DNA of 64,000 nucleotides from Spirochaetia bacterium (GCA_963677925.2 CAXXYH010000003.1:1120001-1184000); one strand, 5' to 3'. Numbered from the stretch's first letter, positions 1 to 11,059 are shown. Program-made: numbers and translations. The notes: generated by a model from the letters alone, not told the origin.

Positions 1-332
1 GGGAATTCAGGCAGACCCGAACTTATCGAGAAGGCGCTGTCTTCATCAATAAGAATACTTTCAATCACTATATCCGATTCAGTTGTATTTTCAATTGCAA
101 AGGAAGCTTCCAAGCTTTCACCGAGAATGATTTCACCAAAATCGAGCTCTCCGATATAGCCTTTAATGACGCTTTCCGAAGAGCCTTCATCATAACCGGA
201 GAATGTAAGCCCGGCCGACTCACCCGGGGTAAAAATTTCACATCCGGTAAACAGCAGGATTAACATCAGTACAACGGTAAGATATGCTGATATTGCAGAA
301 TAATTTCTGACTGTACTTTTTTTCACTTTCAT
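1..332 (-). CDS. Lipoprotein with probable Ig-like (ASH/choice-of-anchor D-like) domain, partial (3' end outside window)
   Basis: Not in the ORF track. Manual translation from ATG at 332 gives MKVKKSTVRNYSAISAYLTVVLMLILLFTGCEIFTPG...GELDFGEIILGESLEASFAIENT and stays open to base 1. Lipobox LLFTG-C. Starts 2 nt after the PrsW stop. Confidence 0.75.
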   Translation of the reverse strand, partial: MKVKKSTVRNYSAISAYLTVVLMLILLFTGCEIFTPGESAGLTFSGYDEGSSESVIKGYIGELDFGEIILGESLEASFAIENTTESDIVIESILIDEDSAFSISSGLPEF

Positions 333-334
333 TT

Positions 335-994
335 TTATTTTCTCCTTAATCCGCCTGAAACTCTTTTTCTTCCGAAAATATTGAACAGGTAGTGCTGAAC
401 GAAAAACAGAAAAACCGGAATGATAATTCCCAGAACCTGCAGGGATTCAGTTAATCCTGATAAATTGTAAATTGAATGAATTGTAGATGAAAGAATGAAC
501 ATTCCCGCCAGCAGCGGCAGAGAGATAAATTCATAATCCATCATAACCTGAATTGCATAGCCTACAAGTGCTGTCATTGATCCATGCAGGACACAGGCCG
601 TCAGGCTCCTTGTTACTATAAAGAAAAGGCTGTCGCTGATTCCGTTTGAAGTTGTGATTGTAAGGTAGAGATAATTCTCAAGAATTGAAAACCCAATCCC
701 CACAGCCATGGCATACCTGACTATATTATACCGGGAAGTGCTTTTGTTCTTTCTCATGAAAATCAGCAGGGGTAAAAATTTGATACCTTCCTCCATGACG
801 GGAATTATCTGGCTCAGCAGCAGAGTTTCATCCGGAATGATATAGGTATCAATAAATATATTTATAAAATAGACGAGTATTGTTGAGGTAAGCCCCCAGG
901 TGAAAAATACTATAAGCCTTCTATACTCACCCTTAATTACCATGATGAGAAAAAAAAGCGGAAGCAGCGTTCCAATGTACAGAGCTTCTATCAT
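335..994 (-). CDS. prsW: PrsW-family intramembrane glutamic/metalloprotease
   Basis: Multi-TM protein with PrsW motifs PVMEEGIK, GIGFSILEN, RSLTACVLH and HSIYN. Confidence 0.85.
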   Translation of the reverse strand: MIEALYIGTLLPLFFLIMVIKGEYRRLIVFFTWGLTSTILVYFINIFIDTYIIPDETLLLSQIIPVMEEGIKFLPLLIFMRKNKSTSRYNIVRYAMAVGIGFSILENYLYLTITTSNGISDSLFFIVTRSLTACVLHGSMTALVGYAIQVMMDYEFISLPLLAGMFILSSTIHSIYNLSGLTESLQVLGIIIPVFLFFVQHYLFNIFGRKRVSGGLRRK

Positions 995-1716
995 ATTAAT
1001 TTCTCCTCATTGAATACAAAAATACTGCAGGTAAAATATATTATTACAAATGGAAGCAGCATATAATTCAGCAGAGGCGGAAAGTAGACGGATATTGCCG
1101 TGTTATCCAGAAAACATGTCATATCTATCAAACCGGATGCTGACACCGTACATGTATACCATGAGAAGTATTTTGCATCTTTAGCGGGAGAGATCGATAC
1201 GGACATAGCCCTTGCAATTATAAAAACCAGGAGCAGGGCAAAGCCCGATGTAATCCAGTCCGCATTATTAAAAAAGTGAAGTACTGCCGGTACTGCAAGG
1301 AGTGTGTAAGGCAGCATACGGCGGGCATCCTTTTTTTTATCAGGTTTCCAGATTCCGGTTTTTACAAAATATCTGCTTAAGCCGGTAAAAAGAAGATAAT
1401 ACAGGTAGATGCCCGGTTCTCCGAAGGGAAGCCGGTATGCCGGAAATCCGGTTATATGCCGGAACATTCTGTCTGCCGTAAAACCGAGAAGTCTGCCGCT
1501 GAGTATAAATACCGCAATCAGAATAAAGGGGCTGTATTTAAATCGTTCAATATTTGATGCCGCGGCGATTACTGCCGGTACGGCGGCGGCTGCAAACAGA
1601 ATCAGGACCGCATATTCAGCCGGCAGAGGACTCAGCTTCAAATAGTAATCAGCGATCAATAAAGCAAGGAGTACGGAATAGATTATAATCAGCACCGGCA
1701 GAGCTTTCTTCTTCAT
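991..1716 (-). CDS. Hypothetical polytopic membrane protein
   Basis: 241 aa with about 7-8 hydrophobic segments. Its stop overlaps the prsW start (ATGA). Confidence 0.75.
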   Translation of the reverse strand: MKKKALPVLIIIYSVLLALLIADYYLKLSPLPAEYAVLILFAAAAVPAVIAAASNIERFKYSPFILIAVFILSGRLLGFTADRMFRHITGFPAYRLPFGEPGIYLYYLLFTGLSRYFVKTGIWKPDKKKDARRMLPYTLLAVPAVLHFFNNADWITSGFALLLVFIIARAMSVSISPAKDAKYFSWYTCTVSASGLIDMTCFLDNTAISVYFPPLLNYMLLPFVIIYFTCSIFVFNEEKLI

Positions 1717-1732
1717 AGGCTTAAATACACTC

Positions 1733-3433
1733 CTAAAGCCTAATCACGAATGCAGCGTTAACCTGAAAATCGATTCCGCTGCTGTCGGAAAGATCTCCGC
1801 TGTCATCTGTTTCGCGGCCGAGGTCGATATCCCAGGGTCTTGATTCTCCTGAAATCACTGCATTACCTATAGTTGAGAAATTCTGCATATCAATCACACA
1901 GCTTAATTTTTTTCCCATTGGAAGAATAACTCCGGCCTTTGTTCCAATCTCCCAGGTTAAATCTCCGGATGTATTTTTCTCTTCCCATACACTTCTGGTA
2001 TCTGTGTTATATGCCCGGTATACTTCAACTGAATACAACGCCGATACGGAAGCATCAAAGAAGAACCTGAAATCTTTACCAGGATTAACCGTATATCTTG
2101 CAAGCAGGTCTGCGCTGTGGATATAGGTTTCGGAGGGGTAGAGATCATTGTCCGCACTTAGACTGTCATCTGCCGGATCTGTTCCGAGACTGAGTTCGGT
2201 ATAGTGATTTGTGTTAAGGCTGTTATATGCACTGACACCGGCCGCGGTGTCCTCATTCTGGTAATATCGCTCTGCAAAAAGTGAATAGCCAAGCCCGATT
2301 CTAAACCTGGACTTTTTTTCCGGATTAATAAATTCCAGTGCAAGCATAGCATCAAAACTGCTTAATCCGGAATCATAGATATACTCTGAATAACTGTCAT
2401 CAGTTTCAGATTCAGCAAGCTCATGTTCCAGGTAGTAATAATATGTGTAGTCAAGCGGTGTATAACCGGCTTCAGCAATAAAGGACAAAGTCTTTGATAA
2501 TGGCATCACAATGGCTGCTTTTACATCGACATTATTGTTTACCGCATATTCCTGATGTTCATAGGAGGCCAGCTGATACAGTTCACTTGCCTCATTATAG
2601 TACTCCGGTCCGCCGTCAGCTGCCGGGAGCAGGTAGTAATCTTCGAGGGTATAAATGGTATCAAGATATCCGTCAGCATCTGTATCGACAGCCTTATATT
2701 CCCGGCTCAGATCATCAAAGTATCCGCTGTAAAGAAGGCTGAAATAGAGTCTGTTTTTTTCAAGCGGCATATTAAAACCAAGAGTACTGCTGTAGGTATG
2801 CAGATATTCATCAGTGTTATCCTGCCCTGATAATAATTGAGTATATGCGAATGCCGGACTGTATGAGCTGTCAGTTACCCAGTTGTAATACTTCGGATCG
2901 TATGTAAGGCCGTATCCGAATGACAGACCTCCCTCTACATCTTCTCCCGAGAGGAAGCCGAAGTAGAGATCAGCCCAACCGCTGTAATTATTTTCATTAT
3001 ACTTATCGATTATATCTTCGGTCGAACTGTTATAGTTAAGGCTTTCAGTTTTTTCACCCCGGTGTTCTGAGCTGTAAACCAAATCAAATCCGAAAACGCC
3101 CGGTTTATCTTCGCTCTTTTTAAGCAGGGTAAAGTCTGCATATGGAAGTATTTCATAAGAACTGTATGTTTCAGTTCCGCCGTCTGCCCCGAGCGAATCA
3201 TCAGAACGTTCATCACCTGCGCCGGACAAATTAAAATCCGCATCAAAGTTTCCAAGAATCATATCGGATGCAATTCCCATAAGGATTGAAGGGTTATCAA
3301 TATAGTCGTATTCCGGGTATAAGGCTGATGTACTTTCACCCTGAAAGAGAAGATTTGTTTCATCTAAATCTTCACCGGCTGCAAAAAAAACAGCAGCAGT
3401 AAGGATTAAAAACAAGAAGATTATTTTTTTCAT
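1733..3433 (-). CDS. Exported acidic protein, putative outer-membrane beta-barrel
   Basis: Signal peptide MKKIIFLFLILTAAVFFAAG, alternating aromatic/hydrophobic strands, C-terminal strand FQVNAAFVIRL. ATG at 3433 preferred over the track's TTG at 3439. Confidence 0.65.
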   Translation of the reverse strand: MKKIIFLFLILTAAVFFAAGEDLDETNLLFQGESTSALYPEYDYIDNPSILMGIASDMILGNFDADFNLSGAGDERSDDSLGADGGTETYSSYEILPYADFTLLKKSEDKPGVFGFDLVYSSEHRGEKTESLNYNSSTEDIIDKYNENNYSGWADLYFGFLSGEDVEGGLSFGYGLTYDPKYYNWVTDSSYSPAFAYTQLLSGQDNTDEYLHTYSSTLGFNMPLEKNRLYFSLLYSGYFDDLSREYKAVDTDADGYLDTIYTLEDYYLLPAADGGPEYYNEASELYQLASYEHQEYAVNNNVDVKAAIVMPLSKTLSFIAEAGYTPLDYTYYYYLEHELAESETDDSYSEYIYDSGLSSFDAMLALEFINPEKKSRFRIGLGYSLFAERYYQNEDTAAGVSAYNSLNTNHYTELSLGTDPADDSLSADNDLYPSETYIHSADLLARYTVNPGKDFRFFFDASVSALYSVEVYRAYNTDTRSVWEEKNTSGDLTWEIGTKAGVILPMGKKLSCVIDMQNFSTIGNAVISGESRPWDIDLGRETDDSGDLSDSSGIDFQVNAAFVIRL

Positions 3434-3445
3434 ATACAATTTCCT

Positions 3446-4771
3446 TTATTTAAATCTGTGATTATTTTTTATGTCAGCTAATTTTATATCTTCTTCAGGA
3501 GAATTGATTCCGGCAGATATTCCCTTGAGCATCCTGCTGCCGGCTTCCTCATCAACTTCATAGTCATAGTATTTATAGACGTACTTGGTTTCAATTTCAT
3601 AATACACATCATTTATATACTCTTCTGTATACCTGATTGATGTCCGGTCATACAGCAGGGTTCCTCCTTCAGTATAGCGGCATTCTTCAAGCAGATTCGA
3701 ATCATCATCATAACTGTAGCTTGTATATTCAGTTACCGAGCCGTAGAGGCTGCGGGTATCCTTTGTGACGTTGCCCAGGGAATCATACTCGATATTAAGA
3801 ACAGTATACTTGGAGCCAATCTCATCAATATCAATTTTATAGGTAAAGGGATCAGTATCACCTGTATTGAGATCATCAAATGAAAGGTTGTCATAAGCCG
3901 CACTTGAGATCTGCGGAACACTGTCCACTGATTCACCGTCAGAGAGAAGGTCATAAAGATAATCAGCCTGTTCATAAACGTTGCCGTCTTCATCCCGCTG
4001 ATAACGGGTCAGGTAGTAAAACTGATCATCAGCTTCAACATAGGGGCTGTAGGATGAGTGGTAAAGCTCATACATGTAGTCCCAGGAGTCATCGTCATAC
4101 CAGCATGCGTATTCTTCTGTCAGAAAAAGGTCATAATCATCGTTGTCAGGGTCTTCTGCAGCAAAATATTTTTCTGTGCGGTAATACATGTAATCATAAT
4201 CATCTTCCAGATATGTAACTTCCTGACGCGCAATTATCTCATCACCTGAACCGGTAACCTTATAATCAATAATTTCTGTATAATTACTGTAATTAACTGT
4301 GTCTAAGTCCGTCCCTTCCGAATTTATATCAGTATAGGCAACTGTGTAGTACAATCCCAGTTCACCGTCATCGGAGGCAGCCGAGGGCTCACGTGTTTCA
4401 GCACCGCTCAGCAGATAGTCGTATACAGTCTCTCCGTCATAGATGTAATAATCTTTCACAAAGCTGTAAATGTAAAACTCTACCAGAGTCTCTTCACCTT
4501 CAGTTACGCTGTATACATCAGTCCGCGTATTAAGATAAACCCCGTCGTAATCTTCATATGTATACCGGTAAACCGCACTTAGTGTTCCGTTTTCATCATA
4601 GACTCGCGTCTCAACCGGCTCCAGATCATATTGATCAGGATCAACGTATTTGCTGAATGTGACCTCTTTCGAATAATAATCAATTGTTCCTTCAGATCCG
4701 CTGTCCAGATCACAGGAAACAGGGATTATCAGAATAATTGTAATAATTAAATAAATGTATTTACTTTTCAT
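3446..4771 (-). CDS. Acidic Tyr-rich lipoprotein with YD-like repeats
   Basis: Start at 4771 (MKSKYIYLIITIILIIPVS-C) overlaps the upstream stop (ATGA). Motifs YDENGTL, YQRDEDGNV, YDSLGNVT, YSYDDDSNLL. Confidence 0.75.
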   Translation of the reverse strand: MKSKYIYLIITIILIIPVSCDLDSGSEGTIDYYSKEVTFSKYVDPDQYDLEPVETRVYDENGTLSAVYRYTYEDYDGVYLNTRTDVYSVTEGEETLVEFYIYSFVKDYYIYDGETVYDYLLSGAETREPSAASDDGELGLYYTVAYTDINSEGTDLDTVNYSNYTEIIDYKVTGSGDEIIARQEVTYLEDDYDYMYYRTEKYFAAEDPDNDDYDLFLTEEYACWYDDDSWDYMYELYHSSYSPYVEADDQFYYLTRYQRDEDGNVYEQADYLYDLLSDGESVDSVPQISSAAYDNLSFDDLNTGDTDPFTYKIDIDEIGSKYTVLNIEYDSLGNVTKDTRSLYGSVTEYTSYSYDDDSNLLEECRYTEGGTLLYDRTSIRYTEEYINDVYYEIETKYVYKYYDYEVDEEAGSRMLKGISAGINSPEEDIKLADIKNNHRFK

Positions 4772-6327
4772 ATTTCCAGACTTCCATCCCAGTTCCAGAA
4801 GGGCCACTTATCATCCCAGATATCTATCGGAATTGTGATTATCTTGATTCCAACTTCGGCATAAGCGCCTGCTTCGGCATATGCTGCAATAATCCAGTCA
4901 TTGAAGTTGCCGTAAAATCCGTCATCGGTGTTATAGCCCATGATTCCAAGCGGCTCGACATATCCGCCTACAGTCAGATAGATTCCGCCGCCGCCTTCCA
5001 GCTCGACAAGATCGATACCAAGCAGTCCGAGGCTTCCGCCCAGGTACAGCCCAGCCTTTGTTGTGACTTCCGCGGCAATTGTAGGACGGAAGGCAAAGTT
5101 CATATAATTGTTATCAAATGCCGGTTTAATCTTGTACGGAATAAAGGGCCAGGAGAGTTTGCACTCTCCACCGAGCGTCATTCTGGAGTATTCTGAAACC
5201 TCGGCCGTCAGCGAGACATTCCCGTCAATACCGATTTTTGCAGAGATTCCCACGGAAACTTTTATTGTCGTATTCGGATCAAGGAATATAACCTCAAGCA
5301 GAGGAACCGAAAGCTCGGCTGCAAGGGAGGCTGTCCCTATCAGCTTAAAGTCAAACTCCTGGGCCACGGTTGCAATACATTTGGCGGAACCGCTTTTAAG
5401 ATGGAATTCAGGATGATAAACAATCCACCAGTCATGAACCCATGACACCGTACAGCTGGGCATATTAAGTTCGCCTTCAACCCTCAGCTGCTTAAGGTTC
5501 AAAGTTCCTTTGAGCTTTATCTCACCCGAAGCGCTTATTTCAAGTTCGGTCTCAGAGAACTCATTATCGTCATCATTGCTGCTGTCACTATTGTTGCTGT
5601 TATTATCATCGCTGCTGTCACTATTGTTATTATTATCATCACTGCTGCTGTTATCATCGCTGTCGGAGTTCTGGTTCTTCTCTTCCTTCTTACCCTCTTT
5701 AGCTATCTTTTTAAGCTCTTCAATGATCTCTTTTTTAACTTCCTTTTTCCAGAGAGTTATATCCACATTGAATGAACGCAGGGTATCAAGATCATCAACC
5801 TCAGGATCTGTGTCGTACCACAGAACAGATCTTGAATCTGCAGTTGTCTGTTTAAAAGACGAAGAAAGTTTATCGGCCTCAGCAGCATTCTTAGGAAGAA
5901 GAGTGACCCCCTTTGAAAGCGATGCTCTGCCCAGGCTGTCATCAGTACAGCTTATATCAAACTCGGGAACAGATACTCCGTTGAACACCTCTTCGGGTCT
6001 GGGAGCAGTGGTCTCTATTACCGTTTTACCATTGTATTCATATATGTCGACTACCTTTCTGGCTTCATTATCAGCTGTAATAAAAATTGAACCTATTTCC
6101 AAATCATCCGGCGTAGAGGATCTTTCCGGTGTATTGGCTGATCTGGAAAATAGGGTTCCGATCGGTCTGAGATCAATTATACCGTCAGTAAATATTGCAT
6201 TGATTCCGGACATTGGAACGTCGGCAGATACTGAAAAAGCTGTGAAAAACAAAAACAGAATGAAGGGAACCAGGCCCTTCTTCATTAAACCGTAATTATT
6301 TCTATACATTTTAACATCCTGATTCAT
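4768..6327 (-). CDS. Exported hypothetical protein with N/S/D low-complexity insert
   Basis: Signal peptide MKKGLVPFILFLFFTAFSVSA (alternative start 6285). Beta-rich C-terminal half. Confidence 0.75.
   Translation of the reverse strand: MNQDVKMYRNNYGLMKKGLVPFILFLFFTAFSVSADVPMSGINAIFTDGIIDLRPIGTLFSRSANTPERSSTPDDLEIGSIFITADNEARKVVDIYEYNGKTVIETTAPRPEEVFNGVSVPEFDISCTDDSLGRASLSKGVTLLPKNAAEADKLSSSFKQTTADSRSVLWYDTDPEVDDLDTLRSFNVDITLWKKEVKKEIIEELKKIAKEGKKEEKNQNSDSDDNSSSDDNNNNSDSSDDNNSNNSDSSNDDDNEFSETELEISASGEIKLKGTLNLKQLRVEGELNMPSCTVSWVHDWWIVYHPEFHLKSGSAKCIATVAQEFDFKLIGTASLAAELSVPLLEVIFLDPNTTIKVSVGISAKIGIDGNVSLTAEVSEYSRMTLGGECKLSWPFIPYKIKPAFDNNYMNFAFRPTIAAEVTTKAGLYLGGSLGLLGIDLVELEGGGGIYLTVGGYVEPLGIMGYNTDDGFYGNFNDWIIAAYAEAGAYAEVGIKIITIPIDIWDDKWPFWNWDGSLEI
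5561..5670. repeat. In-frame low-complexity repeat encoding NSDSDDNSSSDDNNNNSDSSDDNNSNNSDSSNDDDNE
   Basis: Direct repeat gctgctgtcactattgtt at 5578 and 5611; tattatcatc at 5601 and 5631. Confidence 0.8.
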
Positions 6328-6328
6328 C

Positions 6329-6787
6329 CTAATAATCTTTCATAAAGACGCTTTCATCATCATGCTGCTCCACTACCCCGCGAAGTTCACCATCCTCGTC
6401 ATACCCGAAGTATGTATTCAGTTCAGTTCCGTCAGATGCACTTCTGCTGATTTGGATAAGCCTGTCATTATCATCATAGACTTCTTCGGTATACCAGGTA
6501 ACGGCGGTCTCTGAACCTCCGGTCGGTGTGGAAACAGTCCTGGCCAGGTAGCCGGCATCATCGTATTCATAGGTGACCGTTTTACTGACTTTCTGATCAG
6601 AATCATAACTGAGGGTTTTTAGCAGTGTCTTTCCGTCGGAACTGTATTTATATTCGTTGAGAACATCATTTGTATCCTGATCGATTATGACAAAACTCTT
6701 TGTCTCCTCTTCTTCAGCAAAGAGACCGCAGCCTGATGCCACTAATACGGCCGCAGCTAATAGAGCTGCTGATATCACATTTTTCAT
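6329..6787 (-). CDS. Small lipoprotein with YD-like repeats
   Basis: Lipobox LVASG-C, RBS GGAGGAG, motifs YEYDDAGYL, YDDNDRL, GYDEDGEL. Confidence 0.8.
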   Translation of the reverse strand: MKNVISAALLAAAVLVASGCGLFAEEEETKSFVIIDQDTNDVLNEYKYSSDGKTLLKTLSYDSDQKVSKTVTYEYDDAGYLARTVSTPTGGSETAVTWYTEEVYDDNDRLIQISRSASDGTELNTYFGYDEDGELRGVVEQHDDESVFMKDY

Positions 6788-6801
6788 ATCTTCTCCTCCG
6801 G

Positions 6802-6969
6802 CTACCTTCTTATATGCTGGGAAGGCGGTCTTCTTGCGGCATCAAGGAAATTCATATCATCAAATACCGGGAAATGAAAAAACTGACCGATAACAAAGCC
6901 CAGCAGCAGAAAAACAATCGGAAAGATTATTGCTCCGGCTTTTGAACTTTTCTTTTTCTTTTTAGCCAT
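6802..6969 (-). CDS. Small single-TM protein (55 aa)
   Basis: MAKKKKKSSKAGAIIFPIVFLLLGFVIGQFF: basic N-terminus plus one TM helix. RBS GGAG precedes ATG 6969 (track start is 7005). First gene of the operon. Confidence 0.6.
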   Translation of the reverse strand: MAKKKKKSSKAGAIIFPIVFLLLGFVIGQFFHFPVFDDMNFLDAARRPPSQHIRR

Positions 6970-7037
6970 AATTTTGCTCCTGAAATTTCTGATTTTTTGT
7001 ATCAACAGTTATTTTTATATACCCGGTTCAGAAGTAA

Positions 7038-7070
7038 TTCGTCCGGCTGTATCCAGTGAGACTTTTTTTT
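7038..7070 (-). promoter_or_regulatory. A8-GTCT-N14-GGACGAA motif, putative activator (AraC) site
   Basis: Same geometry as sites at 21343, 37365 and 39346. Lies between the operon and the divergent AraC gene. Confidence 0.5.
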
Positions 7071-7121
7071 AAAATTAATGACAATTTTTTTTATAATCAT
7101 TACAATGAATAAGTAAAATAA

Positions 7122-8240
7122 ATGAATACACAGTTTATTTATCCTACAATAACAGCCATCGCAATATTTCAGTCCTTCTTTTACTTTCTTCTTCTTCTTA
7201 AAGAAAAGAGTAAAAACAGGAGCAATCTGTACCTGGGATTCCTTGTTCTGTCACTTGGTTTAAGCATGACATTTGAGATAATCTATCCGACAGGCTGGTA
7301 TGAAAATCTGCATTTTCTGATTAAGAGCTATGTCCCAAGCCAGTTTCTGATTGGCCCCTTCCTCTTCTTTTATATAAGGTCCCTGACCAGTGAAACTTCA
7401 CGCTTCAGAAGGATAGATTTGATCCATTTCCTTCCGTTTATAGCTGTCATGATCTACCTTGCTCCGTTTTTTCTGTCACCGGTAGAGGATAAAATCGAAT
7501 ATGCCAGAGCATATGTTATCCATGGGCGTGATAATTTTATAGAGGAATGGATAATCTGGCTGGGTATGCAGACATCATTATGGGTGTACGGTATCAAAAG
7601 CCTGCTGCTAACTCACCCGGTTTTTCAGGAACTTAGGAAAAAGAAAGATATCAGAATGTTTCTGAAGAACTGGCAGCTGCTGCTTTATTTTGCAATATTT
7701 CTTACTTTGCTTCTTTATCTGGCCGGTGATATAATGATGCTTGCCGGATGCAGGCTCTGCGAATTCAACCACACAATAACCCTCATACTGACAATAATGA
7801 TCATGGGTCTCGGTCTTGTAGGAATGAACCGGATGGACAGGGTAACAAAACCCCTTGTACTGAAAAGAAATGGCAAACCGCTGAGCAGCAGCGAAATAAT
7901 GAATCAGATTACAGAAATACTTAATCAGCGCAAATACTACCTGGACCCCGAGCTGACACTTGAGGGTCTGGCTAAAAACCTTGAAATTTCACGTACCGAA
8001 CTCTCTAAAATAATCAACCAGGACCGCGGAATAAATTTTTACGATTATATAAATTCCTTCAGAACTGAGGAGTTTATCAACAGACTGCTGCTTGAAGAAT
8101 ACAGAAACAGAAATATACTGGACATAGCCTTTGATGCCGGTTTCAATTCAAAATCAACGTTCAACCGGGTATTCAAGGAACAAACCGGAAAAACACCTCT
8201 GCAATATAAAAAAGACATCGCAAAGATCAGTGCTGAATAA
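7122..8240 (+). CDS. Membrane-anchored AraC-family transcriptional regulator
   Basis: About 6-7 N-terminal TM helices. C-terminal HTH: YLDPELTL...LSKIINQ...FYDYIN...IAFDAGFNSKSTFNRVFK..TGKTP. Confidence 0.92.
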   Translation: MNTQFIYPTITAIAIFQSFFYFLLLLKEKSKNRSNLYLGFLVLSLGLSMTFEIIYPTGWYENLHFLIKSYVPSQFLIGPFLFFYIRSLTSETSRFRRIDLIHFLPFIAVMIYLAPFFLSPVEDKIEYARAYVIHGRDNFIEEWIIWLGMQTSLWVYGIKSLLLTHPVFQELRKKKDIRMFLKNWQLLLYFAIFLTLLLYLAGDIMMLAGCRLCEFNHTITLILTIMIMGLGLVGMNRMDRVTKPLVLKRNGKPLSSSEIMNQITEILNQRKYYLDPELTLEGLAKNLEISRTELSKIINQDRGINFYDYINSFRTEEFINRLLLEEYRNRNILDIAFDAGFNSKSTFNRVFKEQTGKTPLQYKKDIAKISAE

Positions 8241-8266: not shown

Positions 8267-9340
8267 TTACTGTTCCAGAATATGAATTGAATTAGGATCC
8301 ATCGAGAATGAAAGATTCTCACCTACACCGATAGTCACCTTCCGCATTGGATTATTCTCTGATATTTCATATGTCTGTCCAAACAGCTCAACCTCATATT
8401 CATGATGCGATCCCATAAATACACTCTTCGTAACGGGAGCGCTGAAATCCTTGCCGCCGATTATAAAGGATTCCGGACGAATCATGAACTTTACAGTCTC
8501 GCCTACCGCATGACCGGTGGTTTTTTCGGTTTCATAGACTACACCGTGGATATCAAGCGATACCTTATCGGCCTTTTCAGAGATGATCTTTCCTTCCAGT
8601 ATATTTGCACGTCCGATAAACTGTGCGACAAAATCATTAACCGGTTTCTGGTATATTTCATGCGGGGAGCCGACCTGCTGAATGGCTCCGTCTTTCATTA
8701 TTACAATCTTGTCTGAAAGCCCCATAGCCTCTTCCTGGTCATGGGTGACATATATGGAAGAAATTCCAACCTGCTTCTGAATTTTACGTATTTCATCACG
8801 CATATGAAGCCTTAGTTTTGCATCAAGGTTGGAGAGCGGCTCATCGAAAAGAAGAACCCCCGACTCCATTATCAGGGCTCTTGCCAGAGACACCCTCTGC
8901 TGCTGACCTCCTGACATCTCCGATGGAACCCTGTCCGCAAAATCCTCCATCTTCATCAGGCCGAGTATTTTAGCCACTCTCTGCTTAATCTCGGATTTTG
9001 GAAGCTTCTGTAGTTTCAGCCCGTACGCAATGTTATCGTAGACATTCATATGCGGGAAAAGAGCGTAATTCTGAAACACCATGGCGGTGTCACGCTTATC
9101 CGGGGTCAGGTTGGCTACATTCTTATCACCGATGTATATTTCCCCGGATGTCGGGATCTCAAATCCCGCAAGCATTCTGAGGGTTGTAGTTTTACCGCAG
9201 CCTGAAGGCCCCAGCAGACAGACAAACTCGCCGGGTTCGATAATCAGATTAACATTATCTACAGCTTTTACCTGTTCATTCTTATTTGTAATGAAGGTCT
9301 TGGTAAGATTCTTCAGTTCAACTTTAATCTTGTTATTCAT
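8267..9340 (-). CDS. afuC: ABC transporter ATP-binding protein (AfuC/FbpC type)
   Basis: Walker A GPSGCGKTT, signature SGGQQQ, LLFDEP, VTHDQ, TOBE-like tail. In an operon with the permease and SBP. Confidence 0.88.
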   Translation of the reverse strand: MNNKIKVELKNLTKTFITNKNEQVKAVDNVNLIIEPGEFVCLLGPSGCGKTTTLRMLAGFEIPTSGEIYIGDKNVANLTPDKRDTAMVFQNYALFPHMNVYDNIAYGLKLQKLPKSEIKQRVAKILGLMKMEDFADRVPSEMSGGQQQRVSLARALIMESGVLLFDEPLSNLDAKLRLHMRDEIRKIQKQVGISSIYVTHDQEEAMGLSDKIVIMKDGAIQQVGSPHEIYQKPVNDFVAQFIGRANILEGKIISEKADKVSLDIHGVVYETEKTTGHAVGETVKFMIRPESFIIGGKDFSAPVTKSVFMGSHHEYEVELFGQTYEISENNPMRKVTIGVGENLSFSMDPNSIHILEQ

Positions 9341-9358
9341 TATGCACTAACTCCATAT

Positions 9359-11059
9359 TTATTCGGTACTGATATTTTTCACAAAGATCTTTATTACAAG
9401 CATTGCCGCACTGACTATCACGATCAGCAGTGTACAGTATGCTGATGCTACTCCCATTTTACCGACATCAATCTGAGCCATAATGGTTGTAGTCAGTAAC
9501 TTGTATCTGGCTGAAATCAGAAAGATAACAGTACTAACCAGGGTCATACTTCTGGCGAATGTAAAGATAAGGCCGTTGAGGAAGGCGTTTTTAATCATCG
9601 GGATTGTAATGCTTGTAAAAACCTTCCTGCTGGAAGCGCCGAGGACATTGGCGGCTTCCTCGATTGACGGGTCGATCTGCTGCAGGGAAGTGATTCCTGA
9701 ACGGACACCGACCGGGAGACTTCTTATAATAAATGCCATGATAATTATAAAGGCCGTGCCCGTAATAGGAGGTATCAGCGTCATACCGAATATGCTGTAT
9801 GTTTTATTGTAGCTGATAACATATCCCAGACCGATAATTGTTCCGGGAATTGCAAGGGCCATTATGGTGGTAAACTCTATAAACGATTTTCCGAAGAATT
9901 TCTTCCTGACAATCAGGAAGGCAATAATCATTGCAAGGATACCCGATACCGGAGTGGCTATAGCCGACAGCATAGTTGTGGTAAGAACAGGCTGAAAGAG
10001 TTTAGGCTTAAAAACATACCTGTAATGTTCGAGCGTCGGCGTGTAGTTAACACCCCATAGTTTTACAAAGGAACCTATCGGGATGAGTACATACATGAGG
10101 ATTACAAAAAGAGTTACTATCAGCAGAATAATTGTCGCAGGTACGGTTACGTTCCGGCTTGTCACAAGGTCGCGGTGTCTTGAAACCTTGCCGGTAACCG
10201 TAACATATGACTTCTTGCTTACATAGTATTTCTGAAGGACAAATATGGATATCGAAATTGACAGCAGAACCATTGCAAGCGCAGTTGCCGTCCCGAACTG
10301 ATAATTACCGATTCCCTCCTGATAAATCTTCACTGCCACAGTCGTAAAGTTTCCGCCGATAACTACCGGATTTGCAAAATCGGCAATCGACTGTATAAAA
10401 ACAAGCAGAAAGGCGTTTGCAAGTCCCGGGACAGTTAGAGGTAGAGTAACCGATGTGAAAACCCTGAAACGTGATGCTCCCAGATCCCTGGAAGCCTCCT
10501 CGACAGAGGGGTCAATCCGCTGAAGAAGAGCTACCAGCATCATGTACGCAATCGGGAAGAAGCTTAGCGACTGTACAAGCACCAGGCCGTGAAAGCCGTA
10601 TATTTCAGCATCCTTGATTCCGAACAGCCCGCGGGTTATAAGACCGACACGTCCGAACAGAAGAATGGCGGAGAGAGCTACGACGAAGGGCGGAGAAATA
10701 ATAGGCAGAATGGCTATAAAATCGAAAATCTTTTTAAACCTTATTTTCAGGTAGGTTGTGGCATACGCAAAAATAAAGCCTACAATCACTGAAATTGTAG
10801 ATGTGACAGCACCCAGAAGAACTGTATTCAAAAGGATACGGACGTTTCCGTACATTGAAAATACAGCCTTGTAATTTTCAAAAATATTAGCTGTCTTTGT
10901 TGTAAGACTTTCGACAATGATATTGTACAGAGGTATTATTATAAAAAAGGTTACCAGTGCAAGGGTAAATATAATAACAGCAAGCAGAGCCGGATCATTT
11001 TTCAGACTTGCAAGGATCTTGAGTTCACTCTGAAGTTTCAGTTTTCTGGAGTTTTTCAT
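9359..11059 (-). CDS. afuB: ABC transporter permease, duplicated TM domain (AfuB/FbpB type)
   Basis: Two EAA loops (IDPSVEEASRDLGAS, IDPSIEEAANVLGAS) and motif PIISPPFV. Confidence 0.88.
   Translation of the reverse strand: MKNSRKLKLQSELKILASLKNDPALLAVIIFTLALVTFFIIIPLYNIIVESLTTKTANIFENYKAVFSMYGNVRILLNTVLLGAVTSTISVIVGFIFAYATTYLKIRFKKIFDFIAILPIISPPFVVALSAILLFGRVGLITRGLFGIKDAEIYGFHGLVLVQSLSFFPIAYMMLVALLQRIDPSVEEASRDLGASRFRVFTSVTLPLTVPGLANAFLLVFIQSIADFANPVVIGGNFTTVAVKIYQEGIGNYQFGTATALAMVLLSISISIFVLQKYYVSKKSYVTVTGKVSRHRDLVTSRNVTVPATIILLIVTLFVILMYVLIPIGSFVKLWGVNYTPTLEHYRYVFKPKLFQPVLTTTMLSAIATPVSGILAMIIAFLIVRKKFFGKSFIEFTTIMALAIPGTIIGLGYVISYNKTYSIFGMTLIPPITGTAFIIIMAFIIRSLPVGVRSGITSLQQIDPSIEEAANVLGASSRKVFTSITIPMIKNAFLNGLIFTFARSMTLVSTVIFLISARYKLLTTTIMAQIDVGKMGVASAYCTLLIVIVSAAMLVIKIFVKNISTE

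Follow-up and report, generated by a model that had tools for sequence, protein, structure and literature searches.

The subject of this analysis is a compact run of eight co-oriented genes, g1 to g8, at the start of a 64,000-nucleotide stretch of DNA from a Spirochaetia bacterium (GCA_963677925.2, CAXXYH010000003.1:1120001-1184000); the stretch as a whole is called the window (G000:C3:1120001-1184000, G000 being the label of the source genome). The run lies on the minus strand, from base 6969 down past base 1, and encodes a predicted outer-membrane β-barrel whose closest solved relative is Bdellovibrio PopA, a second barrel-like protein, three lipoproteins and an inner-membrane module that includes a PrsW-family protease. 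The same block recurs, in the same order, in other free-living spirochaetes. The genes, as read from the open reading frame (ORF) listing with the evidence named for each, are:

6802-6969, minus strand: g1, a bitopic peptide of 55 amino acids (aa); its ATG lies behind AGGAG, and the longest ORF extends to 7005.
6329-6787, minus strand: g2, a predicted acidic YD-repeat lipoprotein of 152 aa, with lipobox ASGC.
4768-6327, minus strand: g3, an exported two-domain protein.
3446-4771, minus strand: g4, a lipoprotein of 441 aa; the start chosen gives an ATGA overlap with g3, and the longest ORF extends to 4807.
1733-3439, minus strand: g5, a predicted outer-membrane β-barrel of 568 aa, modelled with AlphaFold 2 (AF2).
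991-1716, minus strand: g6, a polytopic inner-membrane protein of 241 aa, recognised by its hydrophobic segments.
335-994, minus strand: g7, a PrsW-family intramembrane protease of 219 aa, assigned by PF13367.
332 to beyond base 1, minus strand: g8, the first 110 codons of a lipoprotein of 610 aa with lipobox FTGC, the remainder lying outside the window.

The genes are packed tightly, with intergenic distances from g1 to g8 of 14, 1, –4, 6, 16, –4 and 2 nucleotides (nt) and ATGA overlaps at the g3/g4 and g6/g7 pairs; the g3/g4 distance becomes –40 nt if the longest g4 ORF is taken. Sequence retrieved beyond the window completes g8 (L002:12500-14332), and the gene and the unit end 1.5 kb past base 1. 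Since the g8 stop (L002:12500) is overlapped by a convergent LacI-type gene, the unit in G000 runs only to the end of g8. Against the 3362 ORFs of at least 200 aa in the genome, the summed Asp and Glu content (D+E) of g2, g4 and g5 falls at percentiles 99.2, 99.6 and 95.4, and their Tyr content at percentiles 97.6, 99.9 and 99.7. The original prediction, drawn from the window alone, had described a tight co-oriented gene run, its continuation past base 1 and the D/E/Y richness of these three proteins, and all three descriptions hold. A genome search found no paralogue of the cluster elsewhere in G000, in which it is single-copy. The idea of a genomic island was rejected, the GC content of the cluster being 0.421 vs 0.427 for the genome.

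The strongest evidence that these genes belong together is their conservation. We searched g5 in 40 relatives and g3 in 400 genomes of the class, and scanned the flanks by tblastn with all cluster proteins. Ten other loci contain three or more of the genes, and gene order is kept in all of them; they represent at least five GTDB families, and outside the genus the collinear loci show 25-63% identity. The complete g1-g8 order is found in the same-genus genome G001 (~90% identity) and in G006, G010, G316 and G249, and the loci of G298, G009 and G008 are collinear but cut by contig ends. Two clusters, in G024 and G213, hold only g2-g3-g4-g5-g8 and are without g1, g6 and g7, and G027 holds just a g3 fragment at a contig start. 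That order is retained in ten of ten loci at this level of divergence argues for a real functional unit, and the neighbourhood search proposed in the original prediction has come out in favour of a conserved gene set. As for its distribution, g3 is present in 13 of the 401 sampled class genomes, G000 included, two of the matches being weak or partial. Within the genus labelled g4 (a label distinct from the gene), it was found in four of six genomes and not in the other two, which are 96-100% complete. All titled records and named database homologues come from Spirochaetales or Spirochaetota, and all are 'hypothetical'; one g3 homologue, P0023, is assigned by its source to Spirochaeta dissipatitropha, a cultivable carrier. 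The cluster is a block restricted to some free-living spirochaetes, a lineage-restricted accessory envelope locus.

As had originally been supposed, the set does not correspond to a named system: as a set it is covered by none of the Pfam, NCBIfam and PADLOC models (PADLOC gave no hits for the eight proteins), and a limited search found no literature describing the gene set. Firm Pfam families could be given to two proteins alone, g7 (PrsW) and the product of the gene divergent from g1 (AraC-type), and g1, g3, g4, g5 and g6 have no above-threshold match in Pfam or NCBIfam.

Structure prediction, which the original prediction had proposed together with Foldseek as a check, gave the clearest result for g5, the protein it had called barrel-like. 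A profile search of 1.84 billion representatives recovered 82 clusters, and 48 near-full-length matches together with the window protein served as AF2 input. The model (pLDDT, the predicted local confidence score, 85.5; pTM, the predicted template-modelling score, 0.82) has 16 long strands by DSSP, with short helices at residues 27-55 ahead of strand 1. Among 48,161 chains compared with VIA, the top match was PopA (9gf0, Z 19.4; 9ga1, Z 19.3), aligned over 293-295 of ~332 residues with a root-mean-square deviation of 3.6, from model residue 30-31 and chain residue 1 onward. CymA came next (Z 16.6, and 16.9 in a second comparison, in which PopA scored 2.5 units higher), followed by FhaC (Z 14.7) and a FadL homologue (Z 14.0), and Foldseek returned FadL, BtuB and BamA barrels at E ~1e-4. 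The model thus supports a predicted 16-stranded outer-membrane barrel with PopA as its closest solved relative. At the sequence level the g5 profile has no similarity to any PDB chain; two of the 49 family members weakly match Pfam OMP_b-brl models, and neither g5 nor any of the 49 matches Plug or TonB_dep_Rec at E ≤0.1. The last residue of g5 orthologues is W, F, Y or L. Residues 248-258 (window 2666-2698), VDTDADGYLDT, form a conserved motif of the DxDxDG type, in which D252 and G257 are invariant in nine sequences; it may be a Ca2+ site. The barrel family has a different setting at L056 (G391:C19, 2407-9253), where the gene for a distant member comes after those for an ABC ATPase, two permease-like proteins and two exported proteins.

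The adjoining g3, described at first as an exported β-rich protein, is indeed exported and has an all-β C-domain, but is better described as a predicted barrel protein itself. Its family comprises 23 clusters, all unnamed, among 5.8 billion. The AF2 model (pLDDT 70.7) consists of a conserved N-domain (~45-200), a disordered, low-complexity acidic linker whose length varies between orthologues, and a 260-aa C-domain with strands that alternate strongly between hydrophobic and polar residues. The VIA-wide comparison placed this domain nearest to small outer-membrane barrels, namely PagL (Z 9.7), OprF-N (8.8) and OmpA (8.8); autotransporter β-domains are also matched at Z ~8, in alignments that start before the barrel. 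Foldseek returned nothing at E ≤1e-3 for the g3 model, and the g3 profile found no PDB sequence match. The C-terminus reads PFWEWxxSWE[LF]. Modelling thus points to g3 as a second predicted outer-membrane barrel protein with a smaller barrel-like fold. Even the two same-genus genomes have Ser/Asp/Asn-rich linkers (window 5560-5700, residues ~210-260) of unequal length and sequence, and some orthologues lack the linker.

The lipoproteins are a more heterogeneous group. The RHS_repeat match of g2 in Pfam (E 6e-4) falls below the cut-off; PDB structures of Rhs YD shells were matched by a profile built from 11 orthologues at E-values from 1.1e-6 to 2e-3, the best being Tse15 (1.1e-6), with three others below 3e-3 that include 7q97 (3.4e-4) and Tse5 (6.9e-4). 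With an isoelectric point of 4.09 and ~130 mature residues, g2 appears from these profiles to be built of YD/Rhs-type repeats, as a short YD-repeat sheet. The second lipoprotein, g4, carries IPVSC at its lipobox position and is 22.5% D+E and 14.3% Tyr, with YD-like motifs. Its family is small (10 clusters), it has no Pfam match and no PDB sequence match as a protein or as a profile, and weak leads from the Atlas, at 0.90, point to clusters of RHS_repeat, DUF4595 and DUF3836. Of the two YD-like lipoproteins originally proposed, g2 is therefore upheld by its profile, but for g4 a YD character is suggested by weak leads. At 152 and 441 aa, neither protein is nearly long enough for an Rhs-type shell, and the analogy with YD shells finds no support on this count. 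The C-termini of g2 and g4 orthologues are conserved. In G000, g4 has a C-terminal extension of ~40 aa that closes with a basic, Asn/His-rich motif, NNHRFK being its end (window 3446-3570).

Lipoprotein g8 gave sub-threshold matches to choice-of-anchor D and HYDIN-type Ig domains, and three of its orthologues contain PF13229 Beta_helix (E 5.5e-14, 3.5e-7 and 8.4e-5); no catalytic family and no PDB sequence match was detected for g8 of G000. Domain matches thus suggest that an Ig-like domain is followed in g8 by a right-handed β-helix, so that its earlier description as an Ig-like lipoprotein was sound as far as it went (the Ig-like part at sub-threshold scores) but left out the β-helix seen in orthologues. 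In five relatives the cluster continues past g8 with a further lipoprotein, g9 (~330-335 aa, of no known family), and in two of these relatives a C11 clostripain-family lipoprotein with an InlB B-repeat lies beyond g9. The extension was read from the relatives' flanks:

L013:14917-17593, L040:2122-4802, L039:15699-16706, L041:13355-14341 and L015:7478-8512: g9 extension loci.

A genome search found g9 nowhere in G000, and a C11 homologue of that genome lies elsewhere, at C3:687219-688853.

The inner-membrane module consists of g1, g6 and g7. The assignment of g7 to the PrsW family made in the original prediction is secure by PF13367 (80.0 bits vs a cut-off of 23.5, residues 26-198), and E68-E69-x-x-K72, F102-x-x-x-E106, H137 and H173-x-x-x-N177 are invariant in six of six orthologues; these acidic and histidine motifs presumably have a catalytic role. 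Four conserved motifs are spoken of for the PrsW family in the available text of PMC3482391. The NCBIfam PrsW equivalog NF033739 is not reached (31.1 bits vs a cut-off of 225). G000 encodes a second, more canonical PrsW-family protein (C4:1768844-1769341, L053; PF13367 121.8 bits), and this higher-scoring gene elsewhere in the genome marks the cluster PrsW as a specialised paralogue. Among the 400 sampled genomes, PrsW of the cluster type (at least 61% identity) occurs in six others, all six of which also carry g3. Through an ATGA overlap, the end of g6 runs into the start of the PrsW gene. Searches of Pfam, NCBIfam and the Atlas placed g6 in no family, only in unnamed Atlas clusters; its orthologues have nothing in Pfam, and hhalign found no similarity between g6 and PrsW. 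The g1 peptide has a Lys-rich N-terminus with a cytoplasmic part of ~12 residues, one transmembrane (TM) segment (GFxxGQF) and the tail PAFDDYNLLDAMRRPxSxHxRR. An alignment of eight orthologues gives 67% mean column identity, unusually high for a 55-aa peptide.

Across the loci, g1, g6 and g7 share one pattern of presence and absence. Hidden Markov models of the three found nothing in the PrsW-less loci L015 and L041 and did find the control locus; the g1 profile found nothing in G024 and, in G213, just a TM-like match on another contig. The g4 tail is missing in exactly these two PrsW-less clusters. The tails of the two proteins resemble each other: g4 ends in NNHRFK (3446-3570) and g1 in SQHIRR (6802-6845), and orthologue tails read [NS]-x-H-x-R-R and N-N/K-H-x-R/K.

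From the gene content, the folds and the co-occurrence of these genes we infer contacts, localisation, cleavage and function along the following lines, and we give a probability of roughly 0.4 to the reading that the cluster encodes a spirochaete-specific assembly at the outer-membrane surface, with a PopA-like barrel as its platform and a processing module in the inner membrane as an accessory. The g5 barrel would be inserted by the β-barrel assembly machinery (BAM) and would act not as a general porin but as a platform closed by a plug, perhaps in the form of a radial oligomer like those modelled for relatives of PopA. The N-domain of g3 would be anchored to the same membrane through the C-terminal barrel and the flexible acidic linker. 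The acidic, Tyr-rich lipoproteins g2, g4 and g8, with g9 and the C11 peptidase in relatives, would travel to the outer membrane and attach there to the barrels, perhaps by Ca2+ bridges through the conserved DxDxDG loop of g5, and would so form a surface coat or a layer for adhesion and substrate capture. PrsW and g6, at the inner membrane, would cleave the short periplasmic basic tail of g1, or the similar C-terminal tail of g4, and this cleavage would time or license lipoprotein release; in one clade the core would work without the inner-membrane module. The original prediction of an inducible surface or uptake complex with its own protease thus survives in its conserved unit, its 16-strand barrel, its lipoproteins, its YD protein and its PrsW, but not in its control by the divergent AraC gene, its YD shells or its protease as a core part: two sister clusters with g2-g5 and g8 lack PrsW, g6 and g1 alike.

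The platform in this reading is modelled on the PopA superfamily, whose members are described, in the available text of PMC12228718, as 16-stranded barrels that hold a tight plug, have a high outer wall and form radial tetramers to hexamers, with a composite β-rim, that trap lipid; they keep a hydrophobic loop 8, which together with a hydrophobic face on strands 12-16 lines a lipid chamber. The supplement of that paper, as far as available, lists predicted Spirochaetota members of 442-603 aa, including T. denticola TDE_2508 and T. vincentii HMPREF1222_01173, and the paper links TDE_2508 to adhesion. The 568-aa g5 falls inside this size range and resembles PopA in its 16 strands, in an N-terminal segment that aligns with the PopA N-terminus and in its best structural match (Z 19.4), but differs in lacking sequence-level similarity to PDB chains and in the acidic character of its putative loop 8; nor does the available text (PMC12228718) describe relatives of PopA as accompanied by a PrsW and a constant set of YD lipoproteins. 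A second point of comparison is BT1927-BT1926 of B. thetaiotaomicron, in which the gene for a surface-layer protein adjoins that of a small, dedicated barrel (according to the text available for PMC4611039) that is now predicted to form radial oligomers (PMC12228718, available text). The small barrel-like domain of g3 likewise stands beside lipoproteins. Unlike in that system, the barrel is fused to its own N-domain and matches 8-strand barrels weakly (Z 8.8-9.7), no sequence relation was found between the two, and neither an invertible promoter nor a recombinase was found at this locus.

Several observations weigh against the platform reading. Behind PopA, the next three structural matches of g5 are two channels, CymA and FadL, and a transporter, FhaC, which is compatible with uptake. 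The loop between strands 15 and 16 (~533-560, numbered from DSSP) is acidic and modelled at a pLDDT of 32-59, and therefore fits poorly with the hydrophobic loop 8 described for the PopA superfamily. Distant g5 homologues (23-28% identity) occur without g2-g4 or g8 in G391, G397, G349 and G039, so that the barrel family is wider than the gene set and not tied to it; for a further one, in G236, the contig is too short to judge the neighbours. The similarity of g2 and g4 in hhalign is limited to their signal peptides, and the g3 barrel matches, at Z 8-9.7, lie barely over the usual background of 7-8. Since the PrsW-less clusters are sisters with 100/100 support in the g3 and g5 trees (11 and 9 rows, all used), the co-variation of the PrsW module with the g4 tail counts as a single evolutionary event, and the link between them rests on that event. 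Finally, co-transcription, surface exposure of the lipoproteins, protein contacts, oligomerisation of g5 and Ca2+ binding are all points that we infer.

The main rival, unlikely in our estimate, is nutrient capture and uptake, in which g5 is a TonB-independent plugged channel of the FadL/CymA kind and the lipoproteins bind and break down a polymer; the breakdown would fall to the β-helix of g8 and the C11 peptidase of relatives, and the products would enter through g5. After PopA, g5 is structurally closest to CymA (Z 16.9) and FadL (Z ~15), both of which use an N-terminal segment in the lumen. An outer-membrane barrel encoded with lipoproteins, and a putative N-terminal lumen segment of g5, are likenesses to SusCD, BtuB-BtuG and FadL/CymA, and barrel and surface-lipoprotein complexes such as BtuB-BtuG are among the g5 fold matches; the β-helix in g8 orthologues and the clostripain-family lipoproteins in two related clusters also favour this explanation. 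However, TonB-dependent transporters and SusC have a plug domain and barrels of 22 strands, whereas g5 has 16 and, in Pfam, no Plug or TonB-dependent receptor domain. A SusD-like family was not detected in the cluster, which also lacks cognate inner-membrane uptake genes; neither the cluster nor its flanks show conservation of an inner-membrane transporter, a binding protein or a catabolic enzyme. The G000 g8, in which no catalytic family was detected, and a dedicated PrsW without an obvious role in uptake fit the idea poorly, and PopA is reported not to behave as a porin (PMC12228718, in the text available). Envelope signalling, with PrsW as a site-1 protease acting on g1 or on the membrane AraC protein and a surface signal passing through the outer-membrane proteins to switch the operon on, seems improbable. 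The prototype PrsW does perform site-1 cleavage of the anti-sigma factor RsiW (PMC3482391, available text), g1 is a conserved bitopic peptide, and a membrane-anchored AraC gene is divergent in G000 and G001. Like B. subtilis PrsW, g7 has the PF13367 domain, a multi-pass layout and intact acidic and histidine motifs. Unlike it, g7 scores 31 bits against the equivalog cut-off of 225, is translationally coupled to the polytopic g6, co-occurs with the 55-aa g1 and shares its genome with a second, canonical PrsW. No sigma or anti-sigma domain was detected at E ≤0.1 in 11 proteins (nine window proteins, g8 and the LacI neighbour), the few cytoplasmic residues of g1 could hardly provide an anti-sigma or DNA-binding function, the AraC gene adjoins the cluster in one of ten other loci, and no regulator is conserved in the flanks.

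An Rhs-type polymorphic toxin, or a PrsW-dependent toxin export system, is very improbable and close to refuted. The idea draws on the match of the g2 profile to Rhs toxin YD shells, and g2 does share the YD repeat unit of Tse15, Tse5 and TccC; PrsW-dependent export of RHS-repeat toxins has in addition been proposed from comparative genomics, with PrsW fused N-terminally to a protein that bears the toxin (PMC3482391, available text). In the present cluster, however, g7 is a standalone protein of 219 aa, a PrsW domain alone, fused to no toxin. The ~130 mature residues of g2 follow a lipoprotein signal and form no closed shell; neither g2 nor g4, itself with a lipoprotein signal, contains a toxin, Rhs-core or immunity domain. 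Moreover, the orthologue C-termini are conserved rather than polymorphic, and PADLOC found nothing in the eight proteins. That no system exists, and that unrelated envelope genes lie together by chance, might be suspected because most of the proteins are without a known family, yet we hold this to be equally far-fetched. It is contradicted by synteny, the order being kept in all ten other loci across at least five GTDB families and at 25-63% identity; the tight gaps, the two ATGA overlaps and the restriction of cluster-type PrsW to genomes that hold g3 speak against it as well.

Taken further, the platform reading becomes that of an undescribed spirochaete envelope machine in which PrsW, its polytopic partner and the 55-aa peptide control a PopA-type radial platform with YD-repeat lipoproteins. 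We consider this stronger version unlikely. If it were true, PopA-superfamily proteins would gain their first defined partners, and standalone PrsW would act in surface-protein maturation rather than in sigma-factor signalling. The superfamily of PopA-like proteins was not recognised until 2025, the partners and functions of its members are not established, and the gene set offers candidate partners. Likewise, a PrsW tied to an outer-membrane gene set and not to a sigma/anti-sigma pair would widen the known role of its family. The outer-membrane biology of free-living spirochaetes is almost unexplored, and a family of its own is lacking for six of the eight proteins (g1, g3, g4, g5 and g6 without any match above threshold, g8 with generic domains only). 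Should the platform reading be wrong, the cluster would remain a well-defined, lineage-restricted accessory envelope locus.

On either side of the cluster lie regulators and, beyond one of them, transporter genes. Upstream of g1 are:

6970-7121: the divergent intergenic region of 152 bp between g1 and the AraC gene.
7122-8240, plus strand: a gene for a membrane-anchored AraC-family regulator, identified by HTH_18 and six hydrophobic segments; it is treated here as a neighbour of the unit.

The AraC protein has six N-terminal hydrophobic segments and a C-terminal double helix-turn-helix (HTH_18, E 9.3e-17; HTH_AraC, 6e-10), in agreement with its original description as a membrane AraC protein. 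The gene adjoins the cluster in one of the ten other loci, that of G001, in the same genus only, which speaks against the earlier idea that the operon is inducible from it. The promoter presumably lies in the 6970-7121 region, which is 96% identical in the same-genus genome and in which sigma-70-like matches were found on the plus strand only. An invertible promoter was considered and rejected, as no long inverted repeats flank the region upstream of g1.

At the other end of the unit, the convergent LacI-family regulator gene (L002:11508-12503) overlaps the g8 stop by 4 nt, and in the same-genus genome just a 22-residue remnant of it was matched. Beyond the AraC gene and convergent to it, the window encodes an ABC transporter ATPase and a fused permease (8267-11059), and the membrane AraC protein may serve these ABC transporter genes rather than the cluster.

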